This document shows positions 371 through 5,506 of a stretch of DNA of 64,000 nucleotides, piece by piece. The position numbers and the translations under genes are program-made. Source of the stretch: Limnothrix sp. BL-A-16 (lineage in GTDB: Bacteria > Cyanobacteriota > Cyanobacteriia > CACIAM-69d); NCBI GenBank assembly GCA_041937175.2, contig CP166615.1:4192001-4256000 (forward strand). Reading direction: 5' to 3'. Positions within the stretch are counted from its first letter, which is position 1; the number at the start of each line of letters is the position of its first letter. The notes under the pieces are model-generated. The model worked only from the letters and a program-made list of their open reading frames with translations, searched no databases and was not told the origin of the DNA.

Positions 371-571
371 ATCGTCCATTCCCGCTCATCGTCCTGATTT
401 CGGCCCTGAGCATCCGGTTCTAGACCGCTACCCGATCGCCGGCCTCGTTAAGATAGAAGGCCCCAAGCGGCGGTTCGCGAACCAAAAGTCGGGCCCTGTC
501 GTCAATTGGCGTTAGAGTAGCCACAATGCGCGATCAACCGTCGCTTTCTACTGTTGTTGAGTTTCGTTGGT

Positions 572-2410
572 ATGGTTCAGCAATTGCCCGATCGTCCCCT
601 GCCCGCCGCCGACCAGGTTGATAAAATCACCCTGCCGAAAACTAGCGAATCGGAAACGCTGAAGAAAATTCGCCACACCACTTCCCATGTGATGGCCATG
701 GCGGTGCAGCGCTTGTTTCCCAAGGCCCAAGTGACGATCGGCCCCTGGATCGAAAACGGCTTTTACTACGATTTTGATAGCCCTGAACCCTTCAGTGAAG
801 AGGCGTTGAAGGCGATCAAAAAAGAGATGATCAAAATCATCAACAAAAAGCTGCCGGTGATTCGCGAAGAGGTGTCCCGCGAGGAAGCCAAGCGCCGAAT
901 TGAGGCGATCGGGGAACCCTACAAACTGGAAATTCTCGACGACATCAAAACCGAGCCAATCACGATCTATCACCTGGGCGATCAGTGGTGGGATCTTTGC
1001 GCCGGGCCCCACTTGGAAAACACCTCGGAAATTAACCCCAAGGCGATCGAATTGGAAACGGTGGCCGGAGCCTATTGGCGCGGTGATGCCACCAAGGCCC
1101 AGCTCCAACGGATCTATGGCACGGCCTGGGAAAGCCCCGAGCAACTGACCGAATATAAACGCCGCAAGGAAGAAGCCCTCAAGCGCGATCACCGCAAACT
1201 GGGCAAAGACCTGGGGCTGTTTATCTTCGCCGATCCCGTCGGGCCCGGCTTGCCCCTCTGGACTCCCAAGGGCACGATGCTGCGATCGATCCTGGAGGAC
1301 TTCCTCAAAGGCGAACAGGTGAAACGTGGCTACTTGCCCGTGGTCACGCCCCACATTGCCCGGGTGGATTTGTTCAAAACCTCCGGCCACTGGCAAAAAT
1401 ACAAGGAAGACATGTTCCCGATGATGGCCGAGTCGCCGGACGAGGCGGCCGCCGAATTGGGCTTTGTGCTGAAGCCGATGAACTGCCCCTTCCACATCCA
1501 AATCTTTAAGAGCCAGTTGCGATCGTACCGAGAGCTGCCGATGCGCCTGGCGGAATTTGGCACAGTCTATCGCTACGAGCAGTCCGGCGAGCTGGGCGGC
1601 CTAACAAGGGTACGCGGCTTCACGGTGGATGACTCCCACCTATTCGTGGCTCCCGAGCAACTCGACGCGGAATTTCTGAAGGTGGTGGATCTGATCCTGA
1701 CGGTGTTCAGGGCGCTGCAACTGAAAAACTTCAAAGCGCGCCTTAGCTTCCGCGATCCCGACTCCGACAAGTACATCGGCTCCGATGAGGCCTGGAACAA
1801 GGCCCAAAACGCCATTCGATCGGCCGTGCAAACTCTGGGCATGAGTTCCTTTGAAGCCCCCGGCGAAGCGGCCTTCTACGGGCCCAAGCTGGACTTTATT
1901 TTCCAAGATGCCCTGGAGCGCGAGTGGCAACTGGGGACGGTGCAGGTGGATTACAACCTGCCGGAGCGCTTCGATTTGGAATATGTGGCGGCCGATGGCA
2001 GCCGCCAGCGGCCGGTGATGATCCACCGGGCCCCCTTCGGCTCGATCGAGCGGCTGGTGGGCATCCTGATCGAAGAATATGCCGGAGATTTCCCCTTCTG
2101 GTTGGCTCCGGAGCAAATTCGGCTGTTGCCCGTGGGCGACAACTTCCGCGACTATGCCGATCGAGTCGTGGAGCAACTGCAAATGGCGGGCATTCGGGCC
2201 ACGGTGGATGGTTCGGGCGATCGGCTGGGCAAAATTGTCCGCAACGCCGAAAAGGAAAAAATCCCCGTGATGGCCGTGGTCGGTGAAAAAGAATTGGAAA
2301 CCAACAGCCTCAGCCTTCGCACCCGGGCTGACGGCGACTTGGGATCGGTGACGGTGGCCACCACGATCGAACGGGCCACGGCCGCCAACCGCGATCGCGC
2401 TGCCTTCTAA
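572..2410 (+). CDS. thrS: threonine--tRNA ligase
   Basis: Motifs IRHTTSHVMA, DLCAGPH, DHRKLG, KPMNCPFH, GLTRVRGF, AAFYGPK, MIHRAPFGS; ATG at 572. Confidence 0.98.
   Translation: MVQQLPDRPLPAADQVDKITLPKTSESETLKKIRHTTSHVMAMAVQRLFPKAQVTIGPWIENGFYYDFDSPEPFSEEALKAIKKEMIKIINKKLPVIREEVSREEAKRRIEAIGEPYKLEILDDIKTEPITIYHLGDQWWDLCAGPHLENTSEINPKAIELETVAGAYWRGDATKAQLQRIYGTAWESPEQLTEYKRRKEEALKRDHRKLGKDLGLFIFADPVGPGLPLWTPKGTMLRSILEDFLKGEQVKRGYLPVVTPHIARVDLFKTSGHWQKYKEDMFPMMAESPDEAAAELGFVLKPMNCPFHIQIFKSQLRSYRELPMRLAEFGTVYRYEQSGELGGLTRVRGFTVDDSHLFVAPEQLDAEFLKVVDLILTVFRALQLKNFKARLSFRDPDSDKYIGSDEAWNKAQNAIRSAVQTLGMSSFEAPGEAAFYGPKLDFIFQDALEREWQLGTVQVDYNLPERFDLEYVAADGSRQRPVMIHRAPFGSIERLVGILIEEYAGDFPFWLAPEQIRLLPVGDNFRDYADRVVEQLQMAGIRATVDGSGDRLGKIVRNAEKEKIPVMAVVGEKELETNSLSLRTRADGDLGSVTVATTIERATAANRDRAAF
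2339..2398 (+). repeat. 60-bp direct repeat, copy 1 (thrS 3' end; attL-like)
   Basis: ttgggatcggtgacggtggccaccacgatcgaacgggccacggccgccaaccgcgatcgc; one mismatch to 4630..4689. Confidence 0.95.
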
Positions 2411-2416
2411 AGCATC

Positions 2417-2503
2417 TTGCACCTCAGGAATTGAGCGAAAGCTCTGAGTGTTGCTAGCGAGTGACTCATTAAACTTTGTCCTAGCTAGCAACGCTCTTTG
2501 CAA
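2417..2503 (+). promoter_or_regulatory. structured RNA or hairpin element between thrS and the islet ATPase
   Basis: gagc-GAAA-gctc tetraloop (2433-2444); 13-bp stem gagtgttgctagc (2446-2458) / gctagcaacgctc (2484-2496). Confidence 0.5.
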
Positions 2504-2526
2504 ATCTCAAAAAGAATTTTGAAGCA

Positions 2527-3894
2527 ATGAATACTCTGCAATTAGATCGATTTTCAACTAAGCAGCGATCAGAATCATCAGGAATTAGTAGAGTAGCAAT
2601 TCAAGGCTATAAATCGATCTTTAATCAATGCTCAATTGATCTTAGCTATTTAACTGTGATTGCAGGATCTAATAGTTCTGGCAAATCCAGCCTGTTTCAG
2701 CCATTATTAATCCTTAAACAGACTCTTGAGTCTCCGTTTGATCCTGGCAGCTTATTGATCAATGGTGATTCTGTCAATATTACTTCCTTGGATCAATTGT
2801 TGTCTCATGTTCCTGATCACAGACGAAATCGCAATTTAATTATTGAGCTTGAACTTCATTTAGAGAAATCAGTTAGGCTTACGTTCTCTGAAAAGCAGAA
2901 AAAACAAGGACTAAAAATCATTGAATCCTGTTATGAAGTAAAAGATTCAGAGAAGGTTTTTGTCTTAAAGAAGGAACTATCTCAAGAGCATCTTGTTGAT
3001 CTTATGCAAAATATGATTGAAGATCGATTTGGTGATGCTGCACCTCTTATAGAAGTTTTGAAGAAATATTCAATAAACCCATTAATTGAAGGAAGTTGCT
3101 TCTTTGACTTGGGATTGACGACACCACAGTTATCACTTTCAATAGGTCTTTTTAATGATTATGCAAATGAAGTTCGACGTATTATCCATGTTTCAGGAAT
3201 TCGAAGAAACCCAGAGAGAACATATCAAAAAACAGCAATAGGTCCAGAATTTAGTGGCGCTTTTGACAAATATGTAGCTAGCGTGATCCTTGCCTGGAAA
3301 ACCGAGCAAAAATCAAAATTTAAGCAACTTAATGAAGATCTTGCTGAATTGGGCTTGACTTGGAAGATTGATGCTAGACAGTTGGATGACTCGCAATTGG
3401 AGTTGCTAGTTGGTCGCGGCCCTACCCATGGCTCAAGCAGGAATAAGAAGCACAAACCCAGTGATACCGTCAACATTGCAGATGTTGGGTTTGGAGTTTC
3501 ACAGGTTTTACCTGTCTTGGTAGCATTATTGGTTGCAGAGCCAGGGCAGCTTGTCTATATTGAGCAACCCGAAATTCATTTACATCCCAAAGCACAAGTG
3601 GCTTTAGCTAAGCTGTTAGTCCGAGCTGCACTTCGGAAAGTTCGGGTCGTTGTCGAAACCCACAGCTCTATCCTGCTACTAGCAATTCAATCATTAGTTG
3701 CTGAAGGGGAACTACCACCTTCAGACACATACCTTCATTGGGTTAGTCGTGATCCTGAAGGTATTACCGAAGTGAGTAGCCAGCAACTTGATGAAACTGG
3801 TGCTTTTGGTGACTGGCCCGAAGACTTTGCAGATACTATGTTAGATCTTAATAGTCGCTACCTAGATGCCGTGGAAAACACAATATTTGGCTGA
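2527..3894 (+). CDS. ABC-type (AAA_15/AAA_21-like) ATPase with DUF3696-like C-terminus
   Basis: IQGYKSI start, Walker A GSNSSGKS, signature-like VGFGVSQ, Walker B/D-loop YIEQPEIHLHP, H-loop VETHS, tail LDETGAFGDWPEDF. Confidence 0.88.
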   Translation: MNTLQLDRFSTKQRSESSGISRVAIQGYKSIFNQCSIDLSYLTVIAGSNSSGKSSLFQPLLILKQTLESPFDPGSLLINGDSVNITSLDQLLSHVPDHRRNRNLIIELELHLEKSVRLTFSEKQKKQGLKIIESCYEVKDSEKVFVLKKELSQEHLVDLMQNMIEDRFGDAAPLIEVLKKYSINPLIEGSCFFDLGLTTPQLSLSIGLFNDYANEVRRIIHVSGIRRNPERTYQKTAIGPEFSGAFDKYVASVILAWKTEQKSKFKQLNEDLAELGLTWKIDARQLDDSQLELLVGRGPTHGSSRNKKHKPSDTVNIADVGFGVSQVLPVLVALLVAEPGQLVYIEQPEIHLHPKAQVALAKLLVRAALRKVRVVVETHSSILLLAIQSLVAEGELPPSDTYLHWVSRDPEGITEVSSQQLDETGAFGDWPEDFADTMLDLNSRYLDAVENTIFG

Positions 3895-3925
3895 GGACTT
3901 ATCCAGAAAAATACAAAGAACTGAA

Positions 3926-4513
3926 ATGAGCAAAAAAACTGGAAAGAGCCTAGTAATCGATGCTTGCATTGCGCGATCTGCTAGCGAAACCAATCATCCT
4001 ATCTCTAGTGCATGTCGAGAATGCCTTAAATCAATTCTGAAACATTCGCACCGCATGGTTATAACAAAAGAAATTTCTCGAGAATGGAGAAAGCATCAAT
4101 CACCATTTGCTCAAGAGTGGCTCAAGACGATGTTTCAAAGAAAAAGACTTCATAGTCTTAAGCCTTCCCAAGTTGAAAACATAGATGGATTGATGGATTT
4201 TATTGACACTTTAGAATTTCAGAAAGAGAGAGAGGATGCTTATAAAGATATACATCTCATAGAAGCAGCCATAGCTTCTGACAAGAGGATTATTTCATCG
4301 GATGAGAAAACAGCACGAAAGTTTTTCAGCGCTGCGACTGAGACTGTTCCTATCATTGGAGATATCCTGTGGGCTAACCCAGTGAAGCCTGAAGAATCAG
4401 TAGCAGATTGGATCGCTCAAGGCACTCCACTGGAACCCGAGAGAACGCTTAAAGCATTTCGACAACGATCGAAAACTGCCCAAGGCTCAAGCTCGCCTGA
4501 GAGAATTGGATAG
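3926..4513 (+). CDS. PIN-like domain protein (putative RNase effector)
   Basis: LVIDAC, REW, KDIHLIEAA and IISSDE give the acidic-residue layout of PIN folds; ATG 31 nt after the ATPase stop. Confidence 0.65.
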   Translation: MSKKTGKSLVIDACIARSASETNHPISSACRECLKSILKHSHRMVITKEISREWRKHQSPFAQEWLKTMFQRKRLHSLKPSQVENIDGLMDFIDTLEFQKEREDAYKDIHLIEAAIASDKRIISSDEKTARKFFSAATETVPIIGDILWANPVKPEESVADWIAQGTPLEPERTLKAFRQRSKTAQGSSSPERIG

Positions 4514-4629
4514 AGTATTTGTCACTTCCATGTCTATCAGATTTACGATATTGCCCAATTTTCATGAATAATTGTGGCTGGTGAATTTTAATCTTTGTTG
4601 TTTTCGCTGTAAGCCAGCTACAAGGGATT

Positions 4630-4701
4630 TTGGGGTCGGTGACGGTGGCCACCACGATCGAACGGGCCACGGCCGCCAACCGCGATCGCACCGATTTTTA
4701 G
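4630..4701 (+). repeat. direct repeat copy 2: displaced thrS 3' end with its own in-frame stop (attR-like)
   Basis: Encodes LGSVTVATTIERATAANRDR-TDF* versus -AAF* in intact thrS. Confidence 0.93.
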
Positions 4702-4877
4702 AGTTCAGGGCAGCGCCAGCCCAGAAAAGCTCTAGCCTAGGGAGGTGGAAACGGCCGATCGTGCCCCTGTCCCCGATCGGGGATGTGCCTAGGTTGCCCA
4801 TTGCCCCATCCTCGATCGTCCAACGGCTCAATAGTTCCCCATCAAGTCCCCATCACAAGTACCGCTTGAACTTTGCG

Positions 4878-5366
4878 ATGAAACTTCAATCCACAATTGC
4901 AGCGATCGCCCTGGGTTTACCGCTGCTGCTGACCCCCACCGCTGCCCAAGCCAACGAATACGATCGCTGTGTGCGCGACCTGCGCGACTCCAACATCAGC
5001 CCCGACCTGATCGCTAGCTCCTGTGCCTATGTGCTCCACCCCGAGGATTTGGGCGACTGCGTGGAGCGAATTGACGAAAAAACCACCATCTCAGCGGAAG
5101 CGGCCCTCAGAACCTGTCGGCAAGCGCGCCGCCCGATCGACACCGCCAACTGTGTGGTCAGCATCTCGCGGGCCGGAGCCGTTGACGGCAGCGCCGTTTT
5201 GGAGCACTGTCGCCGCAGTCTGCTGCCCGAACGGTTTGCCCGCTGTGTTACCACCCTGAATCGCCAGGTGACCAGTGACCTGACCACCGCCATGGGCCAA
5301 TGCATTGACGGGCGCGATCGCCCCCGTGACATGTATCCCGAATATCCCGGGCGATCGGGCAACTGA
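4878..5366 (+). CDS. secreted Cys-repeat hypothetical protein
   Basis: Signal peptide MKLQSTIAAIALGLPLLLTPTAAQA; three C-x5-P-x5-CV units. Confidence 0.8.
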   Translation: MKLQSTIAAIALGLPLLLTPTAAQANEYDRCVRDLRDSNISPDLIASSCAYVLHPEDLGDCVERIDEKTTISAEAALRTCRQARRPIDTANCVVSISRAGAVDGSAVLEHCRRSLLPERFARCVTTLNRQVTSDLTTAMGQCIDGRDRPRDMYPEYPGRSGN

Positions 5367-5506
5367 GATTGGTGACTGAGATCGTAAAACTGAGGCCGTA
5401 AATCAGCGTTTTGGTTGATTTGGGTTCCAGTTGATTTGGGTTCGATCGGGTTTGGCCCACCTGTCCGTGGCCTTGCCAAGCCCACACCCTCTTCAAGAGA
5501 ACTGGA

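Follow-up and report, generated by a model that had tools for sequence, protein, structure and literature searches.

What is a pair of AT-rich genes doing when it is the only cargo inserted at the end of a housekeeping gene? The question is raised by a locus of the cyanobacterium Limnothrix sp. BL-A-16 (assembly GCA_041937175.2), in a stretch of 64,000 nucleotides of contig CP166615.1 (positions 4,192,001 to 4,256,000; "the window", with positions counted from its first letter). Here the end of thrS, the threonyl-tRNA synthetase gene, is followed by a gene for an ATP-binding cassette (ABC) ATPase, gene 1, and a gene for a small protein of predicted PIN fold, gene 2. We consider it probable that the pair is an anti-phage module of the kind in which an ABC ATPase controls a nuclease, with the architecture of the HEC-03 system and related to Menshen, whose DNA-sensing protein NsnA it does not have. 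By sequence, the pair most likely represents a separate clade related to HEC-03 and to NsnB-NsnC of Menshen.

The pair was inserted into the end of thrS

An initial annotation of this DNA had described two tightly linked AT-rich genes as the sole cargo of an islet, and its surroundings bear this out. GC content is 0.34-0.47 over 2400-4600 versus 0.58-0.63 in both flanks, and the islet holds exactly two open reading frames (ORFs), both on the forward strand, of 455 amino acids (2527-3894) and 215 amino acids (3866-4513). A 74-nucleotide direct repeat of the thrS 3' end, with copies that are 91% identical, encloses just these two genes. In a genome of the same genus (G002, locus L082; G numbers denote sampled genomes and L numbers analysed loci) the site is empty: thrS runs straight into the sequence found from 4629 onward in the window, with 93% identity up to 2398, 92% from 4629, and a single copy of the repeat core of about 60 nucleotides that is identical between the two copies in the window. 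In a three-way alignment, the empty site matches the left flank of copy 1 and the right flank of copy 2, which shows that about 2.23 kb (2399-4629) was inserted into the thrS end. The islet is a real insertion, horizontally acquired.

The final codons of thrS at this locus now come from the islet. The islet-borne C terminus of the synthetase reads ...RDRAAF before the stop (2399-2412), versus ...RDRTDF in the displaced native end (4689-4703), and the G002 protein ends in ...TNF. No integrase, transposase or recombinase gene is found among the islet ORFs, and no membrane protein is encoded in the islet, in line with the earlier remark that gene 1 has no membrane partner. The two ORFs are adjacent and otherwise as first described, with one revision: gene 2 likely starts at 3926, because its homologues begin at the second Met, rather than at the alternative ATG at 3866. 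The start at 3926 gives a protein of 195 amino acids and a gap of 31 nucleotides after the gene 1 stop, and that at 3866 an overlap of 29 nucleotides.

Gene 1 encodes a soluble ABC ATPase

The product of gene 1 is a soluble member of the ABC ATPase superfamily (Rad50/SMC/OLD-like) and belongs to the NsnB/HEC-03 group, which is associated with defence. It matches AAA_15 (7.5e-27) and AAA_21 (2.2e-25) in Pfam, as do all 77 of its relatives. Among the PADLOC models its best matches are NsnB (3.4e-57, 192.8 bits), HEC-03B (1.7e-44, 150.6 bits) and PDC-M55A (5.5e-40, 135.6 bits), all three of which are also matched by each of the 77 aligned relatives; AriA (1.6e-28), HEC-01A, GajA and PtuA (6e-9) are far weaker. 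The tail at residues 396-438 resembles DUF3696, at 21.1 bits against a Pfam cut-off of 22, and 30 of the 77 relatives match that family at E ≤ 1e-3.

The full ABC motif set that had been read from the translation is indeed there: GSNSSGKS (residues 46-53), VGFGVSQ (320-326), IEQPEIHLHP (345-354) and ETHS (377-380). Judged from these motifs, the apparatus for nucleotide binding and hydrolysis is intact. Invariant in the 77 ATPase sequences are Walker A G47 and K53, the G321-x-G323-S-Q signature, P348-E349 and H379. Residues 95-215, in contrast, are hypervariable, with a mean top-residue fraction of 0.29 versus 0.80 in the flanking cores. The AlphaFold2 (AF2) model of gene 1, with a predicted local distance difference test (pLDDT) score of 88.8, has no long coiled coil, and Foldseek matches it to Rad50/SMC heads (E 9e-13) and to Septu/retron PtuA (E ~2e-10).

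Gene 2 has a predicted PIN fold that looks active

Gene 2 is predicted with high confidence to adopt a VapC-like PIN fold. Its AF2 model (pLDDT 94.7) was compared by VIA-align with 48,161 chains; VapC21 (5sv2_A) ranked first (Z 9.4, root-mean-square deviation 3.3 Å, 128/135 residues aligned), six chains reached Z ≥ 8, and the top 25 matches were nearly all PIN proteins. Ranked behind VapC21 are VapC, FitB, Nob1, Nmd4, SMG5 and further PIN domains. The high-probability Foldseek matches are the PIN domains of Nmd4, VapC, Nob1, ZC3H12C and PRORP, the best E value being just 2.4e-3, and the neighbouring cluster in the ESM Atlas is labelled 'putative PIN domain-containing protein' (score 0.97). The structural comparisons suggested at the outset as a check of the fold thus came out on the side of PIN.

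The family is large. A profile of nine close relatives retrieves 2,235 cluster representatives (defined at 50% identity) at E ≤ 1e-3 and 1,880 at 1e-10, and the 150 best of the 2,235 are 123-233 amino acids long. Neither gene is a chance ORF: gene 2 has this many representatives, and AAA_15 and AAA_21 are matched throughout the 77 relatives of gene 1. Gene 2 itself finds nothing significant in Pfam, PADLOC, NCBIfam or PHROGs, where the best match is the VapC family TIGR00028 at E 0.13. Faint Pfam PIN matches occur among the 146 sequences of our conservation alignment (145 of the 150 best relatives plus the window protein): PIN_3 in six, PIN_12 in three, and PIN and PIN_8 in one each. The 195-residue protein has no second domain. 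No longer, fused version of it turned up in a search, although such a negative carries little weight.

The translation contains IDA, REW, KDIHL and SSDE, the PIN-like acidic layout that had caught the attention of the initial annotation, and these motifs supply the four acidic residues that are conserved in PIN sites. Across the 146 sequences, D12 is kept in 143, E53 in 145, D108 in all 146 and D126 in 135 (with Glu in seven more). In the AF2 model D12 and D126 follow strands 1 and 4, respectively, E53 is in the helix that comes after strand 2, and D108 is in the helix that precedes strand 4; this places them like PIN catalytic residues, and they would be expected to cluster in space. With these residues kept, the PIN domain looks active.

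Also conserved in the family are D119, C30, H42, H57, W149, N151, P152 and W162. The W149-x-N151-P152...W162 pattern forms a conserved C-terminal extension outside the VapC core. This extension could be a docking surface, and the Cys and His residues could form a metal site.

The two genes are strictly linked and co-diverge

A check for co-occurrence of the homologues had also been proposed, and they always co-occur. Each of the 80 genome loci with a gene 2 relative has a gene 1 homologue immediately before it in the same orientation, and the full-length gene 1 matches at these loci are ~39-51% identical. In an independent set of metagenome loci, a gene 1 homologue lies upstream in 72 of the 72 testable loci, that is, those with at least 300 bp of upstream sequence; the other eight of the 80 were too short. 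The metagenome scan found no relative with the single gene 2 protein, and with the gene 2 alignment it found relatives at 34-45% identity only; the closer relatives of gene 2, at 88-90% identity, were not among them. The distance matrices of the two proteins correlate (Mantel r 0.825, with 0 of 999 permutations as high), a value inflated by shared ancestry. The pair is strictly linked and co-diverging.

Prediction of a 1:1 complex of the two proteins from alignments gave 'no answer' (score 0.03 versus a mark of 0.32), which speaks neither for nor against binding. The pair has no conserved third gene: the largest flanking cluster, at 11 of the 80 loci, is a glycosyltransferase that related cyanobacteria share through synteny.

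Comparison with characterised systems

The pairing, which the initial annotation did not recognise as a named system, is of a kind already published. HEC-03 (Hma-embedded candidate 03) combines an ABC ATPase with a VapC-like PIN protein and was discovered inside Hma systems; it was reported to protect E. coli only when its two genes are present together, and to be toxic when induced (Payne et al. 2024 preprint, 10.1101/2024.01.29.577857). Seven HEC-03 loci, fetched with the PADLOC model of the PIN component (PDLC04147, HEC-03A), encode an ATPase of 457-473 amino acids and then a PIN protein of 158-165 amino acids. The window pair shares this two-gene operon structure and order, with a small stand-alone VapC-like PIN protein in second place. 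Gene 1 is 27-28% identical to the seven ATPases, D12 and E53 of gene 2 align with D8 and E54 in the N-terminal PIN motifs, and two relatives of the pair (L009 and L065) adjoin HmaC, the context in which HEC-03 was discovered.

There are also clear differences. Gene 2 is ~30 residues longer than the HEC-03 PIN proteins and has the conserved C-terminal extension. On the HEC-03 ATPase model (PDLC04148, HEC-03B), the score of gene 1 is just 150.6 bits, the best stretch being residues 206-440, and the protein lies outside the HEC-03 ATPase clade. In a quick maximum-likelihood tree of 27 of the 77 gene 1 family members, seven HEC-03 ATPases, eight NsnB and ten others, the gene 1 family, HEC-03 and NsnB fall in separate clades, with Shimodaira-Hasegawa-like approximate likelihood ratio (SH-aLRT) supports of 100, 100 and 99; the order in which the three branch has a low support of 83. 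Separately, four of the seven HEC-03 loci have a conserved ORF of ~475-493 amino acids, beginning MAKTNHGRVG or a close variant, downstream of the PIN gene and on its strand (Table 1).

Menshen is the second related system. In AlphaFold 3 models its NsnB binds the PIN-like domain of NsnC; the system requires NsnA, a DUF262 protein (ParB-DUF262 plus ParBDB), and NsnC joins an inactive PIN domain to a C-terminal nuclease (Li et al., NAR 2025, PMC12065111). That report describes all major NsnC PIN-like families as being without catalytic residues and the NsnC domains as shuffling, and the survey in it was seeded with NsnA, so that pairs without NsnA would have been outside its reach (PMC12065111). 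The likeness to Menshen lies in NsnB being the best PADLOC model of gene 1, in the DUF3696-like tail, in a signature that reads GxG rather than SGG, in a Glu that replaces the Asp of Walker B, and in a PIN-fold partner immediately downstream of the ATPase. The NsnB model gives 335-364 bits to true NsnB, 197-224 to HEC-03 ATPases and 192.8 to gene 1. No NsnA/DUF262 gene lies upstream, where thrS precedes gene 1. Unlike NsnC as described there, gene 2 keeps the PIN catalytic residues and co-diverges with its ATPase, and it has no C-terminal effector domain.

The host genome does have two genes for DUF262 proteins, one at 3.75 Mb and the other at 4.316 Mb, both far from the islet. One region about 120 kb from the islet (G000:C1:4314203-4316655; L093, L096) contains a canonical PIN gene (PF01850, 30.3 bits) and a gene for a 606-residue DUF262 protein, at most 1.5 kb apart on the same strand, and may be another defence or toxin-antitoxin locus.

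The resemblance to PARIS and Septu is one of principle, a soluble ABC ATPase controlling a separate nuclease, and it extends to the AriA and PtuA model matches of gene 1 and the PtuA structures among its Foldseek matches. The effectors differ, being TOPRIM (AriB) and HNH (PtuB) versus PIN here, and the ATPases are much more distant in sequence. The DUF4435/TOPRIM partner of PARIS is not found: gene 2 has no PADLOC match and is PIN-like instead. With VapBC, the pair shares the PIN fold and the D/E/D/D layout, and the top structural matches are M. tuberculosis VapC toxins. However, the sequence-level matches of gene 2 are below significance, there is no VapB antitoxin, and the upstream partner is the 455-residue ATPase or its homologue in all loci.

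Taken together, these comparisons indicate that the kind of system was already known, whereas the gene 2 family is uncatalogued and its PIN domain looks active where that of Menshen is not. The prospect that the pair would match a system already named was therefore borne out for its kind, through HEC-03, and not for the family itself, which the HEC-03A and NsnC models miss. Large as it is, the gene 2 family has no Pfam model and is missed by the PADLOC v2 models, so its loci escape at least this defence annotation.

A proposed sensor-effector mechanism and its rivals

We infer, with good support, a sensor-effector arrangement, and the function is most likely that of an abortive-infection module with a predicted active PIN RNase. 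By analogy with PARIS, Septu and the Menshen models (PMC12065111), an oligomer of the ATPase would keep the PIN protein inactive, probably via the conserved C-terminal tail. The hypervariable insert of the ATPase (residues 95-215) would read a phage-derived cue, and binding or hydrolysis of ATP would then free or activate the PIN domain. The freed or activated domain would cut RNA (tRNA, rRNA or mRNA), with the result that translation halts and the infection is aborted.

Several results weigh against an anti-phage module built around a PIN nuclease of the HEC-03 type. A hidden Markov model (HMM) of the 146 gene 2 relatives finds no PIN protein among PDB sequences (Nob1 at E 1.3), and hhalign gives a negligible probability of 0.4% for gene 2 against a thin profile of three VapC proteins of the same genome. 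Against the HEC-03 PIN proteins the hhalign match is weak (probability 10%, E 0.0031, 53 columns). Gene 2 has no match to PDLC04147 at E ≤ 1 and none to the NsnC model, and only one of its 146 relatives matches each (E 0.0047 and 0.003, respectively). Scans for promoters and terminators found nothing above shuffled expectation. Finally, the defence-island context that had been proposed as a check is only partly there: eight convincing defence neighbours occur among 130 flanking ORFs, but 56 of the 67 loci have solely housekeeping or unannotated neighbours, and the enrichment is therefore modest.

The pair could instead be a toxin-antitoxin or addiction module, in which a VapC-like toxin is held by an ATPase that is merely its antitoxin or chaperone and which stabilises the islet with no anti-phage role. 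The VapC-like fold of gene 2 fits this idea, as do the Pfam annotation of AAA_21 as 'putative AbiEii toxin, type IV TA system', the frequent position of the pair alone between housekeeping genes, and the reported toxicity of HEC-03 on induction (10.1101/2024.01.29.577857). We nevertheless regard it as unlikely: the locus has no small VapB-type antitoxin, an ATPase of 455 residues whose catalytic positions are conserved and which carries a hypervariable insert exceeds what neutralisation needs, and the nearest characterised relatives are defence systems. There is overlap, too, between toxin-antitoxin and abortive-infection functions. A Menshen system is very unlikely, whether its NsnA was lost, a DUF262 protein encoded elsewhere acts as its sensor in trans, or the pair is a decaying remnant. 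It could call on NsnB as the best PADLOC model of gene 1 and on the two DUF262 proteins of the genome, but no DUF262 or ParB domain is found in any of the 130 flanking ORFs from 67 loci, and the ATPases group in a separate clade (SH-aLRT 100) that excludes true NsnB, with the gap in bit scores given above. Moreover, gene 2 has PIN catalytic residues and no effector domain, the opposite of what is described for NsnC (PMC12065111). The failure to find longer fused forms adds weak evidence on the same side, and strong conservation speaks against decay.

Rad50 and SMC heads being the top Foldseek matches of the gene 1 model, the pair might also be imagined as a housekeeping or repair system whose ATPase and nuclease, like SbcCD or RecN, work on the nucleic acids of the host. 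This is highly improbable given the lack of a long coiled coil in the model, the presence of the family in just 12 of the 301 genomes sampled from the class and in neither of the two other genomes of the genus, its position in a low-GC insert whose site is empty in a sister genome, and the broken copies elsewhere. We give equally little credence to a role in mobility, by which the nuclease and ATPase would themselves insert and excise the 2.2-kb unit. Such a role would explain the long duplications at the window islet and at L023, L026, L029 and L046 in an islet that encodes no integrase or transposase. However, 70 of 76 loci have no flanking repeat, two more have short ones only (L069, 41 nucleotides; L040, 26 nucleotides), and single-crossover homologous recombination of a circular intermediate explains the repeats with no encoded function. 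Nor are PIN nucleases known to be recombinases.

An anti-phage ATPase-PIN module thus remains our preferred reading, and a bolder model can be built on it that we hold only tentatively and consider doubtful as a whole. In this model the family would be the catalytically active, sensor-less form of an ATPase-PIN system, ancestral to the inactive PIN adaptor of Menshen, with one PIN protein serving as both docking module and nuclease and with the hypervariable insert sensing phage directly. The 2.2-kb unit would spread as a recombinase-free cassette, looping out between long repeats and re-entering by a single crossover where conserved housekeeping genes end (thrS in the window; rpsB, gyrA and genes of other aminoacyl-tRNA synthetases elsewhere).

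If a defence role is confirmed, the family would be a widespread new member of the set of systems that place a nuclease under the control of an ABC ATPase. Infection sensing by such ATPases without a separate sensor could then be studied in a simple two-protein case, and the inactive PIN adaptor of Menshen would gain an active-PIN counterpart. The clean insertion together with the empty site of the sister genome provides a natural strain pair for comparison.

Distribution, neighbours and mobility

The two-gene unit is accessory, horizontally moving and patchily distributed. The 12 genomes of the class in which it occurs belong to eight of 144 genera, and in our genome sample it was found neither in the two other genomes of the genus nor in the seven other genomes of the family. 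Members of the gene 2 family are found in cyanobacteria, Acidobacteriota, Latescibacterota, Planctomycetota, Spirochaetia, a Bacillota genome and an archaeal genome bin, and at 71 of 76 loci the module is lower in GC than its flanks. In four other cyanobacteria the PIN gene is present in degraded form (G244:C39:4842-5544, G344:C1:1873812-1874003, G177:C83:52667-53194 and G339:C1:2824955-2825482); one is split in two, one is a 62-position fragment and two have an internal stop.

Long repeats enclose the module at four of the 76 loci tested: L023 (178 nucleotides, 4231-4408/6528-6705), L026 (129 nucleotides, 3872-4000/7144-7272), L029 (184 nucleotides, 4170-4353/6965-7148) and L046 (119 nucleotides, 4465-4583/6625-6743). 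These are unrelated lineages. The repeat covers the 3' part of the upstream gene in L046 and L029, as at thrS in the window, and the start of the downstream gyrA in L023. The pattern suggests a cassette that moves without a recombinase of its own, and single-crossover recombination of a circular copy with a short stretch of a conserved gene would yield this repeat structure. Because related genomes share some sites, independent insertion events are fewer than loci.

The flank scan covered 130 of the 155 nearest flanking ORFs. Of these, 11 have a PADLOC match at E ≤ 1e-20, and most others are housekeeping genes. The eight convincing defence neighbours are HmaC (L009, L065), DrmMI/type IIG (L023), PDC-S02, KwaA (L040), HEC-01A (L046), a type I methyltransferase (L047) and PDC-M24B. 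HmaC lies directly upstream of the pair in two Spirochaetia genomes (L009:1873-4644, 1.5e-96; L065:1880-4648, 1.3e-95; PADLOC). At L076 the module ATPase is preceded, at a distance of ~1.5 kb, by a second, distant NsnB-like ATPase (L076:1899-3149) with 27.5% identity to gene 1, and other AAA_15/AAA_21 ATPases neighbour the module in L046 and L063.

Table 1. Features of the window locus and of related HEC-03 loci
Feature	Position	Strand	Basis or remark
thrS (threonyl-tRNA synthetase)	554..2410	+	618-amino-acid ORF; insertion target is its 3' end
Direct repeat copy 1 (left junction, thrS 3' end)	2339..2412	+	Repeat search; three-way alignment with G002
Direct repeat copy 2 (right junction, displaced native thrS 3' end)	4630..4703	+	Matches the single copy of G002
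Low-GC islet, ~2.23 kb	2399..4629	+	GC profile; empty-site alignment with G002
Gene 1, soluble ABC ATPase, 455 amino acids	2527..3894	+	ORF, Pfam, PADLOC, AF2 model
Gene 2, stand-alone protein of predicted PIN fold, 195 amino acids	3926..4513	+	Homologue starts, AF2 model, conservation
Inverted repeat, 16-nucleotide arms, 88% complementary, 19-nucleotide loop	2446..2496	+	Between thrS stop and gene 1, at islet left end
Conserved ORF after the HEC-03 PIN gene	L097:1987-3465; L101:1-1425; L102:1-1476; L103:1-1476	Same strand as PIN gene	Open at locus edge

The inverted repeat at the left end of the islet was not called by the terminator scan, and Rfam and tRNA scans over the whole window gave zero matches. 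Four RNA sequencing runs with the same species label have 0 reads on 1500-5500, the presence of the organism in these runs not being shown. Elsewhere, the module often adjoins aminoacyl-tRNA synthetase genes, for IleRS, TrpRS or LeuRS at L001, L027, L029, L031, L058 and L066 and for ThrRS in the window. Other very conserved neighbours are rpsB (L002, L014, L045, L052), gyrA (L023), topA (L007) and smpB (L030).

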